Source: Patescibacteria group bacterium (GTDB lineage: Bacteria; Patescibacteriota; Minisyncoccia; Moranbacterales; UBA2206). From it: a DNA stretch of 64,000 nucleotides. The notes under the pieces are model-generated. The model saw only the letters and a list, made by a program, of their open reading frames with translations. It did no database searches and had not been told where the DNA came from. Below, piece by piece: positions 11,963 to 52,041 of the stretch; position 1 is the stretch's first letter, and the number at the start of each line of letters is the position of its first letter. Made by a program: the position numbers and the translations under genes. The stretch lies in the NCBI GenBank assembly GCA_022709735.1, contig JAKLIG010000001.1:192586-256585 (forward strand). The letters are read 5' to 3'.

Positions 11963-11969
11963 AAAAATA

Positions 11970-12058
11970 AGTTAAAAAGTCTATCAAGTCCGTAAAGTCT
12001 ATAAAGTTAAGAAAAAAGATTCTCTCGGACTTTATGGACTTTCAAACTTTAAGGACTT
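11970..12058. repeat. Palindromic 'aagtc(c)gtaaagt' repeat element ('empty' copy of the inverted repeats that flank the four-helix-bundle gene)
   Basis: atcaagtccgtaaagtctataaagtt .. 17-nt spacer .. cggactttatggactttcaaactttaaggactt. The right half is the reverse complement of the left-half motif family. Same word family as 15788-15833 and 16182-16240. Confidence 0.6.
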
Positions 12059-32472: not shown

Positions 32473-33777
32473 TTAATAAGTTAAAATTTCAATTGGTTCT
32501 AATTTTGCTACAAGTTTGATTATTTTATTTTTTTCCATTTCTTTAACTATTTTCTCAGCGTATTCTTTTTGTTTCTCTTTTGGAATACCCAATTCTTTGG
32601 CTTTCCCAATTTCATGATTAGCGGAAAAAAATGTTTCTTCATTTTGATCTGTTCCAACTCCGATATAGGCAATTTCGCTGGCAAAAGGGGAAACTAGCAC
32701 TGGTTCACCAGTTTGGGAAAAAAGCGCGTGAGAGGCCATTTTTGAGGGTCCCAGGGCACGATTAGCGCCATTTCGATGAATAGTGACCTTTCGACCAAAA
32801 TGCATTTCCTCGTCAAAATAAACATGCGGGGCGTCATAAAGAAGTTTAGTCGAAACTGCTCGAGCAAATATTTCTTCCAAGCCCCGATCAATTTCATAAG
32901 TTATCAAAGTTCTATTAGCAAAGCCGTAATTTGAAACAGCACGAAAGGCGGTATCAATATTTTTTTTATCAATCGGAGGAGATATTAATTTAATGAAAAA
33001 TAATATTAAGCGTTGAGAAAAGCTCTTAATAAATCTGGGTGTATAAAGAGATGCGGCATATCTTCCAACGATGCTTGATCCAGTATGCATAAAAAATAAA
33101 TACTGGCCGTTTCTAACTCTTAAAATTTTAGCCGAATTTTCATCTTCGACTGAAGACACTCGCATAAGATGAATAAAATGGCTGGAAGTGGCGCCTAAAA
33201 GTCCAAGTCTAAATTTTGCAATCCAAGAAATAATTTTTGGAATTGCGCCGGAAATTTCTTCTTTGGATATTTTTTTATCTCCAAAAAAATTCCCATGATG
33301 ATAAGTATTTTCAAATTCATTTTTTGTGCGAATTGTGAATTTTTCTTTGAGTGCCATGCTTCCGTGGCGAAAAATGTCAGAAACCATCTCTCCAGAAATT
33401 TTTGTCCCAATGATTTTTTTTGACGGAATATTTTTTTTGAGATTATCGAATAACTTTTTGATATTTTCTGCGGTCATTTCTATGTCATTTAAATCAGTCA
33501 AAACTACTCGCATTCCGCAATTAGGTGCGGCGTCGAGCATTTCCGGCAAAATATTTTCTGATGCCACTACGGAGCCAGTAGGATTTTTTATATTTAGTTT
33601 GGAATGGGCATCACTTAGAATCGCGATATGGTGAAAAATATTTTCATTTTCTCCTATTTTTTCAACTTTTTCCAAAGTGTCATCGCCGGAAAAAGTATTT
33701 TTAGCTGAAAACAAAAAAGCCGGAACCTTCATTTTTCCCGTTTGAAACTTTTTTTTATTCTCAGAAATATTTTCCAT
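32473..33777 (-). CDS. RtcB-family (RNA 3'-phosphate ligase-like) protein, divergent
   Basis: 434 aa. Colinear RtcB motifs: LSDAHSKLNIKNPTGSVVAS (compare PDxHxGxGxxIGxVxA), APNCGMRVV (compare DINCGVRL), GATSSHFIHL (compare GSGNHFLE), FMHTGSSIVGRY (compare HSGSRGLG), SNYGFANRTLI (compare ANYAWANRQ), IHRNGANRA (compare HRKGATRA), SANHEIGKA (compare SxxHGAGR). Several residues at canonical metal/GTP positions are substituted. Confidence 0.55.
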   Translation of the reverse strand: MENISENKKKFQTGKMKVPAFLFSAKNTFSGDDTLEKVEKIGENENIFHHIAILSDAHSKLNIKNPTGSVVASENILPEMLDAAPNCGMRVVLTDLNDIEMTAENIKKLFDNLKKNIPSKKIIGTKISGEMVSDIFRHGSMALKEKFTIRTKNEFENTYHHGNFFGDKKISKEEISGAIPKIISWIAKFRLGLLGATSSHFIHLMRVSSVEDENSAKILRVRNGQYLFFMHTGSSIVGRYAASLYTPRFIKSFSQRLILFFIKLISPPIDKKNIDTAFRAVSNYGFANRTLITYEIDRGLEEIFARAVSTKLLYDAPHVYFDEEMHFGRKVTIHRNGANRALGPSKMASHALFSQTGEPVLVSPFASEIAYIGVGTDQNEETFFSANHEIGKAKELGIPKEKQKEYAEKIVKEMEKNKIIKLVAKLEPIEILTY

Positions 33778-33920
33778 AATATTTAGACTTGCGCGCTTGT
33801 CTCGAAATTACTAAAGCGTAATTTTTATGCTTAAATTAGAATTCTTCTGGTTTACTTAAAATTAATATTTGCAAATAATGCTGGAAATTATTAATTTCTC
33901 GCCAAACATGCAAGTCCTGA

Positions 33921-35057
33921 TCATAGTGTTTTATAAATTTCCTCATAAATCTCGGCAATTTTTCGGATATCAAAATTTTCTTCGCAAAATTTTCTGGCAT
34001 TTTGCCCAATTAAATTTCTTTTTTCGGGATTTTCGTATAAATCCAAAATCGCGTCGACTAATTGTTTGAGGTTATCTTTTTCAATTATAACAGAATTATT
34101 TTTATTTCCCAGCTCTTTTAATATTTCTAAATCAGTTAGAATAACTGGTTTTTCACATGCCATAGCTTCTACAACCGCCAATGGAATGTCAAATTTTCCG
34201 TGCATATTGCTCGCCGGGAACAAGCTTACATCGCATAAATTAAAAACTTCTGGCATAGTGTAGCTTCCATTGTCAAAAAAAGAAACTTTTTCCAGCAGAT
34301 TATTTTCTTTGAGTTTTCCTATGACTTCTTTTTTCTTTTTGGCATCTTTTTCATTCTTAATGCGGACAGCCAGAGCCAATTTAATTTGTGGAATTTTTTC
34401 AGAAACTTCAATAAAGCTATCAATCACCAAATCAATTGCGCCAAGGCGGGTATATTCTCCGGTAAAATTTATCACAAAATCAGAAGGAAGAATATTCTTT
34501 TCTTTCATAAGCGCCGGATCTTTTTCTGTTTTTTTATATTTTTCCAAATCAGTTCCAGGATAAATTCTTTTGACATTTTGAAAACCCAATGAATTTAATT
34601 TATTTTTAGCCCAGTCAGAGTAGGTGATGATGAGATCAGAAAACATCAAATTTCTTATGTCTGTATCCGACCAGAGATCGTCTCTAAGCGCCGCAATAGT
34701 CTGGATAGTTTTAGTTTTTGAAGCGGCAAGAAAATATTTAATCAAAAAAGAATTGAGTTTTGTAGGCGTGAAAAAATAATGATTGATGTCGAATTTTCCC
34801 TTGGTTTTGAATTGAAAAATGAGACAGCGTAATTTTTCAAAAAAGTTAAACTCGGAAACCAGGGAAGTTGTATAAATCGGATGTTGAAAAACATTTTCCG
34901 GTAAATCCGGCAAAATTCCCTTAGTCATTAGGTTAATTTCAAATCCGCTAAGTTTATTTGCAAGATAAAACGCAAAATTTTTAGAACCTTCGTCCCAAGG
35001 TGGAGCAATGGGGCGGGTAACGAGCAATATTTTCTTTTGTAAATTTTCTTGTGTCAT
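33921..35057 (-). CDS. Glycosyltransferase, GT4-type
   Basis: 378 aa. C-terminal EX7E region FPASNMHGKFDIPLAVVEAMACEKPVILTD. Confidence 0.75.
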   Translation of the reverse strand: MTQENLQKKILLVTRPIAPPWDEGSKNFAFYLANKLSGFEINLMTKGILPDLPENVFQHPIYTTSLVSEFNFFEKLRCLIFQFKTKGKFDINHYFFTPTKLNSFLIKYFLAASKTKTIQTIAALRDDLWSDTDIRNLMFSDLIITYSDWAKNKLNSLGFQNVKRIYPGTDLEKYKKTEKDPALMKEKNILPSDFVINFTGEYTRLGAIDLVIDSFIEVSEKIPQIKLALAVRIKNEKDAKKKKEVIGKLKENNLLEKVSFFDNGSYTMPEVFNLCDVSLFPASNMHGKFDIPLAVVEAMACEKPVILTDLEILKELGNKNNSVIIEKDNLKQLVDAILDLYENPEKRNLIGQNARKFCEENFDIRKIAEIYEEIYKTL

Positions 35058-35145
35058 ATTTAGTTTTATTTAAGCTAATTTTTAGCCCAAAGTATTGACA
35101 GAATTAAAAAAATAAATTAAATTTAAAATGTTGTTTTTATTTAAG

Positions 35146-35270
35146 GTGATTTGCGGCTTTTGTCGCCACACCACCACCAAGGGGAGAAGTTAAGGCAAGA
35201 AGGTAGCCACGAGCAATATTACTTGCTTTTATCTTCTCACACGCTTAACTCCTCCTCTTGGAAACTTTTC
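35146..35270 (+). ncRNA. Candidate structured small RNA (GC-rich intergenic element, family unassigned)
   Basis: Intergenic, no ORF. GC content is clearly above the flanks. The nested helices are: a 10-bp helix ccaaggggag (35178-35187) pairing ctcctcttgg (35253-35262) with one G-U; a 1x1 mismatch; a 7-bp helix agttaag/cttaact; a 3x6 internal loop; a 5-bp helix agaag/cttct; and an apical hairpin agcaa-tattac-ttgct. A small upstream hairpin is gcggc-tttt-gtcgc. Possible sigma70-like promoter: ttgaca at about 35096, 17-nt spacer, then taaatt. Confidence 0.4.
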
Positions 35271-35274
35271 TAGA

Positions 35275-35625
35275 TCAAAAATTCTTATATATCTCTTTTT
35301 TCTCATTTCCTGAAATTACCTGAATGGTAATTTTTTTGTCGGATGATAGGCTGAAATTTATTCTTCCTTTTTCTCCTTTCTTGATTTCAAAGGCGCCCTC
35401 TTTAATTTTTTCTTTGTCGGATAAAATAGTCCACTCGAAATTATTTTTGTCCGAATGATTTTCAATTACAAAATCAAAAACATCAGATTTTGGTTCGACA
35501 AAATAAAGCGACCACCAATTCTTGCCAACATTTTCATCGGATTGTTTTTTTTCATTCCAAGACAAAAGGGAAGCACTTAGAAGAAAAGAAAATATAACTG
35601 CCGAAATGATTAATTTATTTTTCAT
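35275..35625 (-). CDS. Small secreted protein (unknown)
   Basis: 116 aa. N-terminal signal/anchor LIISAVIFSFLLSASLLS, then a hydrophilic beta-rich sequence. Confidence 0.4.
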   Translation of the reverse strand: MKNKLIISAVIFSFLLSASLLSWNEKKQSDENVGKNWWSLYFVEPKSDVFDFVIENHSDKNNFEWTILSDKEKIKEGAFEIKKGEKGRINFSLSSDKKITIQVISGNEKKEIYKNF

Positions 35626-35631
35626 AAAAAA

Positions 35632-37563
35632 TTATTTTTTGTAATAAGTTTCAATAAGATTCGAGGAATATATTTTCCAAAAATGTTCGGAATCATTAAA
35701 TTGGGAGCTGTCATAGGCTGGATTGACTACGACAAAATTAATGCCTGTTTCAGTAAAGCATTTTTGAGACCTTGACGATTTAGGTTCGGAAATCATCCAA
35801 AGAGTGCATTGCTCTTTATTCTTAGCGTCGTAGCGAAAGAAAAATCCGCGAGTAAAAGGATAATTATAATCCCGCATCAAAAATACTTTCATCCACGAAT
35901 CAGCCGAAACATAGTTATGATCTTTGAGAATGACATCACTTTTCTCCGTGTGCTCGGCTAAATAGCGCGAAACAGCAAAAGTTTCAATGAATTTTGAATT
36001 GGGTGATTTTGCTTGAATAGATCGGGCTTCAGAAAAAAAACCGCTTGTGGATACATATAATAACAAAATTATAAAAATAATTGCAGACAAATTTTTGTTT
36101 ATATAATATTTATTATTTTTCTTATCAAATAAACATTCAAAAAGAATCCAATTTAGAGCAAAAGCGCCGGACAGAATAAGGGGATAGATGAGATAATTTC
36201 CGATACGGGCGGAAGGAATATCAATATTAAAAAGGGTCGGCTTCCAGGATAAGATAAAAATTGAAAAAAACCAGCCTAAAATTATGGCACTTTGATATTT
36301 TCTTTTTCTTACAAATAGCAAGAAAATTATAACTCCGGCGATTCCGATAGCGGTGCGACTTTCTCCGGCAACAGAAAAAATTTGCTCGAGGCTTAGACCT
36401 GCCTTGGTTGCTCGGGTTGGTTCGCCGATAATTGTTTTCACCGCCTGGTTTTCAACATAGCCCGGTATTTTTACAAAAAATAAAAATAATAAACTAAGAA
36501 ATATAACTGATAATGCAAGCGGAGAAAAAATCAAGGCTAGCCATTTTTTTATTTCCAAAAAAATTTCTTTGCCTGAAAATATTAAGATAAGGAATATGGA
36601 AGAGGCTAATGAGAAAACAAAAAGAAAAGTGCTTAAATGATGAGTATAAGCGAGGCCGAAAGCGCCGAAAATTCCCAAGAAAAAAAGAAGCGCATTTTTT
36701 TCTTGCACAGCGCGCAGGAAAAAATAAAAAATTAAAGGAATGAACAAATTGCCGATAAGGTTTCCAATTACTCCGCCACTTATGAAATTTCCCTGCGAAC
36801 CGGAAAGGGCGAAGAGTGAACCCAAAAGAAACAGGGCGGTTATGGAAATATTTTTTCCATAAGGCAAAAAAGAAAACAATCTTTCCGAGAGAATAAAAAT
36901 AGCCAAAATTCCCATGATATTTATAAGAAACAAAACAAGAGAGGGGAAAGCGGAAACAACATTATTTTTTGAAATAAGCCCAATCGAGGCAAAAATCAGA
37001 TGTTCGCCGATGATAAAATCATCAATCTTGGCTGGTTCACTTATGGAATATGCGCCGTCCTTTTCAATTATGTCAGTTTTTTCATATGTTGGAATTTTTC
37101 CCGTTTCAATTATTTTTTTGGTCCAAAACATATGATGGCCGAGATCAGTACCGGTCGGTGTAATTGTGCCGAAAAGAAAAATAGCGCGGATAAGAATGCT
37201 AAAAACAATAATTAAAATAATAAGGGAGGCTTGTTTTTTGGAATAATCTAGAAGAATGAAATTTTTCTGTTCGTTTTCTTCACTTTTTTTTCTAATTAAA
37301 AAAATGGTATAGCAGATAATAATAAATACAAAAATAGAAATCAAAATAGACGAGGCGTTAAAAATAACCCCAAATCTATCAAGAAGAATAAGCAAAATGT
37401 CAACAATGATTATGCTAAGGCCGAAGGAAATGACAAAACTTTCCAAAGCGGTAAGAACTTTTGATTTTCCAAAAATTGCTAAAAGCAAAAAATACCCCGG
37501 GATAAATAAAACTATCGCGATGGCAAGATAAAATAATATTTGACTATAAATAAAGTTTATCAT
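35632..37563 (-). CDS. Polytopic integral membrane protein with C-terminal soluble domain (possible GT-C-like/arabinosyltransferase-like, unassigned)
   Basis: 643 aa, with more than 12 TM helices. Loop motif TGTDLGHHMFW. C-terminal about 140-aa hydrophilic domain. Confidence 0.4.
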   Translation of the reverse strand: MINFIYSQILFYLAIAIVLFIPGYFLLLAIFGKSKVLTALESFVISFGLSIIIVDILLILLDRFGVIFNASSILISIFVFIIICYTIFLIRKKSEENEQKNFILLDYSKKQASLIILIIVFSILIRAIFLFGTITPTGTDLGHHMFWTKKIIETGKIPTYEKTDIIEKDGAYSISEPAKIDDFIIGEHLIFASIGLISKNNVVSAFPSLVLFLINIMGILAIFILSERLFSFLPYGKNISITALFLLGSLFALSGSQGNFISGGVIGNLIGNLFIPLIFYFFLRAVQEKNALLFFLGIFGAFGLAYTHHLSTFLFVFSLASSIFLILIFSGKEIFLEIKKWLALIFSPLALSVIFLSLLFLFFVKIPGYVENQAVKTIIGEPTRATKAGLSLEQIFSVAGESRTAIGIAGVIIFLLFVRKRKYQSAIILGWFFSIFILSWKPTLFNIDIPSARIGNYLIYPLILSGAFALNWILFECLFDKKNNKYYINKNLSAIIFIILLLYVSTSGFFSEARSIQAKSPNSKFIETFAVSRYLAEHTEKSDVILKDHNYVSADSWMKVFLMRDYNYPFTRGFFFRYDAKNKEQCTLWMISEPKSSRSQKCFTETGINFVVVNPAYDSSQFNDSEHFWKIYSSNLIETYYKK

Positions 37564-38654: not shown

Positions 38655-38735
38655 TTTATAAAGCGACTCGAATAACTCGAATTTTCACCCGAATGTCTCG
38701 AATTCATTCGAATCATTCAAGTGTTCATTCGTAAA
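38655..38735. repeat. Intergenic array of 'tcgaat' hexamer/heptamer direct repeats
   Basis: actcgaataactcgaattttcacccgaatgtctcgaattcattcgaatcattcaag..cattcg. That is five or more copies of (c)tcgaat within 80 nt, between two GT genes on the minus strand. Confidence 0.5.
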
Positions 38736-39725: not shown

Positions 39726-39739
39726 GTGGTTTTAAATTG

Positions 39740-39808
39740 TCATGCTGAATTTATTTCAGCATCTACTTGTTAATTTAGAAGATCCTGAATCAAGTTCAGG
39801 ATGACAAA
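39740..39808 (-). terminator. Two tandem hairpins downstream of the 39810-40040 gene (putative terminator/attenuator)
   Basis: atgctgaa-tttat-ttcagcat (about 39742-39762) and atcctgaa-tcaag-ttcaggat (about 39782-39802). No canonical U-tract on the minus strand. Confidence 0.35.
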
Positions 39809-39809
39809 G

Positions 39810-40040
39810 TCATTTTTTCTTAATTATTAATTTTGGGTCTACGCAATTAAAATTGCACTCAACATTATCAACGCCTTTATGAATTGTATTGTTGGCGCAT
39901 TCTTTTATTTTTTCCTCGCATTGATTTTTAGTTTCAGAAAAATAATCTTGATTGACGGCGTAGCCGAAAAAATTCAATACAAAATAAGCGGCCACTAAAA
40001 ACAAAACCAGCCAGATTATTGATTTTATAACACTAAACAT
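39810..40040 (-). CDS. Small N-terminally anchored Cys-rich protein (unknown)
   Basis: 76 aa. TM IIWLVLFLVAAYFVLNFF then 6 Cys (CEEKIKEC...CNFNC). Confidence 0.4.
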   Translation of the reverse strand: MFSVIKSIIWLVLFLVAAYFVLNFFGYAVNQDYFSETKNQCEEKIKECANNTIHKGVDNVECNFNCVDPKLIIKKK

Positions 40041-51686: not shown

Positions 51687-51786
51687 TAAAAAGATTATTT
51701 GATTTGACAGTCTTTTTTTATTTTGCTTGAATGTAATACTAATGAGCATATAAACAATAATTGTCTAAATAACAAAAGGAGAAATC

Positions 51787-51972
51787 ATGAAAGCTAAAAT
51801 TAGAGAAGTTTTCAAGGAATACGTAGAAACTGCAACCGAACTCACTCTTTATCGATCGAACGCTATGGATCCTGCTTATTATAACAGAGCTAGGGTCGAA
51901 AAGCTTACTGTTCGGCATAAGGAGCTGAGTGACTTACTGTCTAATTGCGAAACGGAAATTGAACTTTTATAA
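51787..51972 (+). CDS. Small hypothetical protein
   Basis: 61 aa. Strong RBS aaaggag 5 nt before the ATG. Upstream ttgaca-like -35. Followed by a hairpin terminator. Confidence 0.45.
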   Translation: MKAKIREVFKEYVETATELTLYRSNAMDPAYYNRARVEKLTVRHKELSDLLSNCETEIELL

Positions 51973-52005
51973 ATGATTTTTTGAAAATTCAAGAAATTAA
52001 TTCTT

Positions 52006-52038
52006 AAGGCATCCAGTTGGAAACTGCGTATGCCTTTT
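52006..52038. terminator. Hairpin terminator between convergent genes
   Basis: aaggcat-ccagttggaaactgcgt-atgcctttt. Confidence 0.55.
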
Positions 52039-52041
52039 AAA

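Follow-up and report, generated by a model that had tools for sequence, protein, structure and literature searches.

The window, by which we mean the whole 64-kb stretch of DNA analysed here, belongs to a 326-kb contig of a metagenome-assembled genome of Candidatus Moranbacteria (CPR/Patescibacteria). It contains a minus-strand cell-envelope glycosylation operon, p643-p116-GT-RtcB, in which the genes p116 and GT are separated by a 217-nt gap (35058-35274) that holds a GC-rich, strongly folding element. The GC content of 35150-35249 is 0.47, compared with 0.19-0.36 in the neighbouring 100-nt windows (about 0.30 locally), in agreement with the preliminary description of this locus, which had singled the element out for its base composition. 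The same description had called the gap free of ORFs. The gap and its minus-strand flanks were confirmed, but two ORFs lie within it, one of 40 aa starting from a TTG (35151-35273) and one of 21 aa starting from an ATG, neither of which is preceded by a Shine-Dalgarno sequence. The features of the locus are collected in Table 1. Taken together with the relatives described below, they make the locus a plausible, lineage-specific candidate for a small RNA that belongs to no known family.

Table 1. Features of the p116/GT junction and of the genes around it (positions in the window)
Feature	Position	Strand	Remarks
p643	35632-37563	-	643-aa DUF6541/DUF1616 membrane protein
p116	35275-35625	-	116-aa secreted protein without family; stop codon at 35275-35277
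3' tail AAACTTTTCT	35262-35271	+	weak U-tract, offset from the stem by 4 nt; next to the p116 stop codon
HP1	35177-35261	+	85-nt GC-rich composite hairpin (inverted repeat); main body and presumed terminator stem
HP2	35145-35175	+	small 5' hairpin; GCGGC/GUCGC core closed by GGUG/CACC; -12.4 kcal/mol, z = -3.0
Predicted transcription start (about 35128-35131) and AU-rich 5' leader	35128-35144	+	start placed from the -10 position
-10 box TAAATT	35118-35123	+	17-nt spacer; 4/6 to TATAAT; TAnnnT columns invariant across lineages
-35 box TTGACA	35095-35100	+	invariant A-TTGACA in 10/10 spacer-bearing lineages
Small palindrome AGCTAATTTTTAGCC	35073-35087		lies in the interval from the GT start codon to the -35 box
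GT start codon and N-terminal extension MTQENLQKK	35031-35057	-	diverged copy of the old p116-stop/GT-start junction; right insertion edge
GT	33921-35057	-	378-aa GT4 glycosyltransferase
RtcB	32473-33777	-	next genes: thymidylate kinase, polysaccharide flippase

The structure lies where the preliminary description had placed it, and its stability is strongly non-random. HP1 folds on the plus strand with a minimum free energy (MFE) of -36.6 kcal/mol (z = -6.66), and none of 200 dinucleotide shuffles folded as well, which sets it apart from the shuffled background. HP2 is present also in full-length folds. The 143-nt transcript model (35130-35272) reaches -50.1 kcal/mol (z = -6.4), again a value attained by 0 of 200 shuffles, and the element comes fifth when the 100-nt windows of the 64 kb are ordered by stability after correction for GC content. 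In order, HP1 consists of a 10-bp helix, a 1x1 A/C mismatch, a 7-bp helix, an internal loop, a 9-bp helix, a 4-nt bulge and a 6-bp helix; its 6-nt apical loop (AUAUUA or UAUUAC) is closed by a G-U/A-U stem and is not a GNRA loop. Helices of 10, 7 and 5 bp with an apical helix of 5 bp had been read previously. The first two stand, but the 5-bp helix comprises only the strongest pairs of the 9-bp helix, and the apical helix has 6 bp. Likewise, the single 1x1 mismatch is the A/C mismatch seen here, but the count of one G-U pair is too low, as the full HP1 MFE structure contains four. No second copy of HP1 occurs within the 64-kb window.

The G-U pairs had also been taken to be compatible with plus-strand transcription only. 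This argument fails. HP1 folds equally well on the minus strand (-35.5 kcal/mol, z = -6.26), where the whole element reaches -51.7 kcal/mol. The two strands fold alike because the G-U pair of the plus-strand outer stem becomes a C/A mismatch on the minus strand, while the plus-strand A/C mismatch becomes a G-U pair, and therefore the transcribed strand is unreadable from the fold. We rejected strand calls from G-U pairs or from folding energy, which are symmetric in the window and mixed among its relatives.

The promoter-like arrangement upstream of the hairpins, TTGACA-17-TAAATT, is a 10/12 match to consensus. Matches of this quality number 43 over both strands of the window; in 1.5 kb, 6 were found where shuffled sequences gave an expectation of 4.7 +/- 2.1. 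A 10/12 match in a single sequence is not significant. Elsewhere in this genome, sigma-70-like promoters are placed sensibly at divergent gene starts. A scan of the region for intrinsic terminators called none on either strand. On the minus strand, no U-tract comes after HP1 or HP2, and HP2 is followed by UUAAAUAAAAAC.

The order p643-p116-GT-RtcB is kept across about 50 Moranbacteria loci, and we compared about 58 syntenic loci in all: 25 from a set with one genome per species, 22 from JGI metagenomes and the rest from exact-protein look-ups. Most relatives have no spacer at this position, the p116 stop and the GT start overlapping as ATGA. The closest relative (84% GT identity) lacks the unit, and so do several sister lineages; the unit is therefore dispensable. 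In 64 loci, blastn and nhmmer turned up no homologue of the body present in the window, nor did blastn in phages or plasmids; in viral contigs, a degenerate pattern for the hairpin arms gave five single 18-mer matches, none with a second arm, consistent with chance. Neither sequence conservation nor covariation of the element was thus seen among relatives, which counts against the candidate as it was originally put forward.

What is shared between relatives is an architecture. Ten distinct lineages carry a spacer of at least 170 nt (170-356 nt) at this junction: the window, L027, L031, L036, L059, L028 (the GT of L029 and L030 is identical, and L018 and L034 are near-identical), L005 (L037 and L048 share its architecture), L025, L054 and L057. 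On the antisense strand, which corresponds to the plus strand of the window, A-TTGACA followed after 16-17 nt by TAnnnT is invariant in all ten (alignment A1). The -10 box is TATAAT in L031, L036, L059 and L025 and TATTAT in L054 and L057, and a promoter scan of this strand scored 12/12 in L031 and L025 and 11/12 in L057. The plus-strand promoter proposed in the preliminary description is thus probably real. An AU-rich leader is followed by structured bodies of 100-320 nt with a GC content of 0.40-0.52, which are unalignable between lineages. Their antisense z-scores range from -4.5 to -8.1 in 9 of the 10 lineages and are more negative than the sense scores in 8 of 10; the between-strand energy difference is mixed, the sense strand being the more stable in four relatives. 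Within the subfamily of L031, L036 and L059, five pairs change on both sides and still pair, as compensatory changes do. In 9 of the 10 lineages the body closes with a final stem and TTTTT(T)ATTT, immediately next to the p116 stop codon, an arrangement that we read as an intrinsic terminator of the antisense strand.

The -35 motif can also be read from the other side, as TGTCAA upstream of GT. We rejected TGTCAA as the -35 box of a sense-strand GT promoter because its distances to the GT start codon (0-47 nt across lineages) and to a putative sense -10 box (21-35 nt, by reading of the sequences) are not fixed, whereas on the antisense strand the spacing stays at 16-17 nt. Between the -35 box and GT, a palindrome of the GGCTnATATnAGCC type stands at the place that matches the small palindrome of the window in L031, L036, L059, L027 and L025; in the relatives it overlaps a TATAAG located 7 nt before the ATG. 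This suggests that the palindrome at 35073-35087 may be a near-leaderless GT promoter (its -10 region), an operator shared by divergent promoters, or both.

The window copy looks the weakest of the ten, with a -10 box that matches in 4 of 6 positions and a tail, AAACTTTTCT, that is not a T-run directly after the stem. Its U-tract is short and offset, and this copy may be partly decayed or in the course of decaying. Even so, the predicted unit has its own putative plus-strand promoter, as expected of an independent small RNA gene.

Other contents of the same junction were seen in related loci. In L022 (1940-2488, antisense), TTGACA-17-TAAACT precedes an AAGGAGG Shine-Dalgarno sequence, two Cys-rich ORFs of 64 and 45 aa, and a terminator adjoins the p116 stop; Pfam gave no significant match for these ORFs (best, FeoB_associated, E = 0.024). 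Since these small ORFs are led by a Shine-Dalgarno sequence, the slot can house a working antisense gene and promoter. The p116/GT junction of a distant relative, L024 (1815-2390, antisense), encodes a predicted membrane protein of 191 aa, for which Pfam returned no significant family. The units of L028 (1145-1464), L018 (2142-2461) and L005 (2187-2461) are, on the antisense strand, candidates for a structured RNA of 275-320 nt (z = -6.7 in L028) in which the stems CCCGAG/CUCGGG and CCCCGAGGG/CCCUCGGG are kept while inner hairpin modules are swapped between two variants; Rfam had no match for this unit.

We favour a plus-strand transcription unit because the promoter is invariant in all ten lineages and an antisense-oriented terminator accompanies it in nine. 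The plus strand is, on these grounds, the likelier to be transcribed, and the GC-rich hairpin is probably the body and 3' end of a non-coding RNA of about 140 nt that is antisense to the flanking genes. The preliminary description had proposed an antisense RNA from the plus strand, and in its choice of strand and of promoter it was probably right, although the reasoning given for both was wrong and the link to SRP RNA that it had aired has to be rejected (see below).

Rho-independent terminators, including bidirectional ones, offer a familiar comparison, as they too consist of a GC-rich stem followed by a T-run, and the last hairpin is of the textbook type in 9 of the 10 lineages. HP1 of the window differs from them in its length of 85 nt, its internal loops and its tail, AAACUUUUCU, and in that it drew no terminator call. 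Moreover, neither the promoter conserved upstream nor the additional hairpins would be accounted for by a terminator on its own.

The most serious alternative, which we consider doubtful, is that the hairpin belongs to the p116-GT mRNA as an intercistronic element and works on the gene (minus) strand: it might end or attenuate transcription in a non-canonical way, offer RNase III a processing site, or stabilise the 3' end of the upstream p643-p116 message. The plus-strand promoter would then be incidental. In favour of this, folding is equally good on both strands, HP1 starts only 13 nt past the p116 stop, the sense strand is the more stable in the four relatives mentioned above, and comparable long hairpins are found in the same-strand spacers at 38655-38735, 11963-12056 and 33778-33920. 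However, neither hairpin is backed by a U-tract on the minus strand and the scan found no terminator there, and most relatives overlap both genes with no spacer at all, so that no such element is required. A role on the gene strand would also leave two things unexplained: the invariant antisense pair of TTGACA and -10 box, and the A-tract that, in 9 of 10 lineages, precedes the hairpin when the gene strand is read.

The borders of the spacer bear on its origin. At the left border a remnant of the ancestral GT start survives (in L031, for example, as ...AAATTTATGAAAATAAAAAAC...), and this remnant supplies the A-tract that is the U-tract on the opposite strand. At the right border stands a diverged copy of the final p116 codons, and in junction alignments the MTQENLQKK extension of the window GT corresponds to KNL*/MKK. 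Because a GT-start relic and a copy of the p116 3' end are found at its borders, the spacer appears to be an insertion into a formerly overlapping junction. The insert of L028 is flanked by a 20-nt imperfect direct repeat (16/20 nt identical), and in the window the duplication is weak. On the GT tree, spacer-bearing and spacer-free lineages are interleaved, as expected if spacers were either gained repeatedly or lost repeatedly, and precisely, between the duplicated borders.

Such an origin raises a second alternative, that HP1 is a functionless relic of a palindromic insertion, REP- or MITE-like or produced by a hairpin-generating duplication, at a hot spot. The p116/GT junction has repeatedly taken up unrelated palindromes: a REP-like double hairpin in L013, a perfect 20-bp palindrome in L008, an AT-rich palindrome in L046 and a GC-rich one in L006 and L056. 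The distribution on the GT tree is patchy, duplicated junction sequence flanks the spacer, including the direct repeat of L028, and the window holds a REP-like double hairpin of its own at 39726-39812. HP1 indeed resembles REP/BIME, Correia and RPE elements in being a GC-rich imperfect palindrome within a short spacer of an AT-rich genome, at a site that takes other palindromes in relatives and has duplicated flanks. It differs from them in being single-copy in everything searched (the 64 kb, the fetched loci, phages, plasmids and viral contigs, with chance 18-mers as the only matches) and in being accompanied by a conserved promoter and terminator. The duplicated sequence flanks the whole spacer and not HP1 alone, and no terminal inverted repeats or associated transposase were seen at HP1. 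In all ten lineages, stable GC-rich folds persist within an AT-rich genome, which argues for selection on structure, and conservation of the promoter and terminator contrasts with a body that is saturated with change. We therefore regard a mere relic as improbable.

In L006 (1668-1720) and L056 (1201-1240), the GC-rich palindrome follows the old GT start, ahead of the KKILLV codons, and its translation lengthens GT at the N-terminus; L006 has a perfect 30-nt palindrome, TCCGCCCAAGGCGGA/TCCGCCTTGGGCGGA (MSAQGGSALGGKK...), and L056 a shorter related form that gives MNKSISAQDGKKI.

Long palindromic hairpins recur in the intergenic spacers of the window genome. Long imperfect hairpins fill short same-strand gene spacers at 38655-38735 (z = -4.8) and 11963-12056 (z = -5.0). 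The palindrome at 39726-39812 (TTGTCATGCTGAATTTATTTCAGCATC ... GATCCTGAATCAAGTTCAGGATGACAA, z = -6.0) has the architecture of the insert in the L013 junction and probably belongs to a widespread class of small palindromic repeats. The GT-RtcB spacer (33778-33920), 143 nt long in the window versus 0-70 nt in most relatives, contains a long-range pairing (GGACUUGC...GCAAGUCU, z = -3.4) and may be another lineage-specific insertion. In all, other spacers of the window hold four or more long hairpins (z = -3.4 to -6.0) that lack a conserved antisense promoter, so HP1 could belong to a general class of palindromic insertions. Separately, the 355-nt spacer 51687-52041 holds an unlisted plus-strand ORF of about 62 aa (51780-51970) with a good Shine-Dalgarno sequence (AAAGGAGAAATCATG...); a terminator-like hairpin (AAGGCATCCAGTTGGAAACTGCGTATGCCTTTT) comes after this ORF.

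A coding function for the plus-strand unit is very improbable and can be treated as effectively excluded. The product would be either the 21-aa peptide MLFLFKVICGFCRHTTTKGRS (35128-35193), leaderless and resembling a type I toxin, or the 40-aa protein of the TTG ORF. Both ORFs exist, the ATG at 35128 sits 5 nt past the -10 box, the 21-aa peptide is hydrophobic at its N-terminus and basic at its C-terminus, and the slot of L022 does encode two Cys-rich peptides led by Shine-Dalgarno sequences. Yet both window ORFs cross the GC-rich stems, neither has a Shine-Dalgarno sequence, and no equivalent ORF or peptide is conserved in the other nine lineages with structured bodies; across all ten units, no ORF that is conserved or led by a Shine-Dalgarno sequence was found. 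We rejected the small-ORF readings for want of a Shine-Dalgarno sequence and of counterparts in relatives, and a type I toxin-antitoxin system was set aside for the same two reasons as they apply to the 21-aa ORF.

Known RNA families were searched with the covariance models of Rfam 15, at the gathering threshold and then at a relaxed E <= 10 over 35000-35400. At the gathering score, there were 0 matches in the whole window and none in 19 related loci, and by E-value nothing credible emerged from the spacers of seven relatives. That no Rfam hit was obtained counts, like the missing conservation, against the candidate as it was originally put forward, and agrees with the preliminary description in that no family could be assigned. 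The best sub-threshold matches were SNORA55 on the minus strand (E = 0.14; 18.5 bits, gathering 45) and RsaOG on the plus strand (E = 0.62; 20.7 bits, gathering 50); the others at the relaxed threshold were implausible (eukaryotic snoRNA, miRNA and lncRNA families). ARAGORN found no tRNA or tmRNA. A loose likeness of GAAGGUAGCC to domain IV of SRP RNA had been mentioned earlier. The bacterial small SRP RNA (RF00169) is similar to the element in size (about 85-110 nt) and in its rod-like hairpin, but the element has no covariance match to it at E <= 10, no GNRA tetraloop and no domain IV loops, is not conserved in relatives and is absent from syntenic loci, and we rejected this assignment. That the element is a divergent member of some known family (SRP, 6S, a Y-RNA-like RNA beside RtcB, or a riboswitch or leader of GT) is thus most improbable: its support lies in the SRP likeness, in RtcB being one gene away and in the two sub-threshold matches, against which stand the absence of any Rfam family at gathering score and of any SRP, 6S or Y-RNA match at E <= 10 in 35000-35400 or in the relatives' spacers, the non-GNRA loop, the lack of a Ro/TROVE gene near RtcB, and the absence from close relatives, where a housekeeping RNA or a conserved leader would have to be present.

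We return to the reading that we prefer, a plus-strand non-coding RNA carried by an insertion and acting as a cis-antisense or head-on unit that tunes GT-RtcB; in this full form it is our best explanation, held tentatively at close to even chances. An insertion of about 220 nt carrying the unit would have split a p116/GT pair that formerly overlapped (ATGA). A sigma-70-type promoter, TTGACA-17-TAAATT, would fire on the plus strand, with transcription starting about 7 nt downstream. The transcript, of about 135-145 nt, would run through HP2 and then HP1 and end, with what is probably low efficiency, at the AAACUUUUCU tail next to the p116 stop codon. Selection would hold the promoter, the terminator and a stable GC-rich fold, leaving the sequence free to change. 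Read-through of the operon is plausible because no sense-strand terminator was detected in the spacer, and the RNA, being perfectly complementary to the p116-GT intercistronic spacer of a read-through mRNA, would act in cis, as an antisense RNA or head-on. Cis-antisense pairing or transcription interference may thus uncouple or tune the downstream GT-RtcB relative to p643-p116, and the palindromic hairpin may double as a barrier to transcription in both directions. It counts against this reading that the proposed antisense RNA does not cover the GT ribosome-binding site. As to function, we infer either an antisense RNA directed at the intercistronic spacer or an "operon splitter".

The nearest precedent is GadY, reportedly a cis-encoded antisense small RNA of the gadX-gadW intergenic region of E. 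coli. As in GadY, the gene for a small RNA, equipped with a promoter and a terminator of its own, would lie on the opposite strand between two co-oriented genes of an operon, and its perfect complementarity to the intercistronic mRNA would mean that the sequence need not be conserved for pairing. The two have no sequence relation, and the predicted unit described here sits in a lineage-variable insertion of a CPR host and is missing from many close relatives.

A broader interpretation, speculative and on balance unlikely, is that the p116/GT junction hosts an undescribed type of cassette, with a conserved outward promoter and terminator and hypervariable cargo, that is inserted with target duplication and lost by precise excision, and whose antisense RNA splits a coupled gene pair into two separately controlled units. 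The cargo of the slot is GC-rich and structured in ten lineages and encodes small Cys-rich peptides in L022. The sequence of a cassette antisense RNA would be free to drift because its target is its own complement.

CPR/Patescibacteria have reduced genomes and few recognisable regulators, and a full-text literature search found no studies of small RNAs in these bacteria. A promoter and a terminator that are kept over ten lineages while the body between them is replaced are a concrete candidate for RNA-based control in such cells, which would also be a case of control by transcription interference inside a cell-surface glycosylation operon. If the cassette interpretation were true, the junction would be the first defined regulatory RNA locus in CPR bacteria and would come with a mechanism of operon remodelling. 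Should the RNA prove not to be expressed, the locus would still be a clean example of a hot spot for palindrome insertion, and it illustrates how an operon can be rewired by insertion at an overlapping gene junction.
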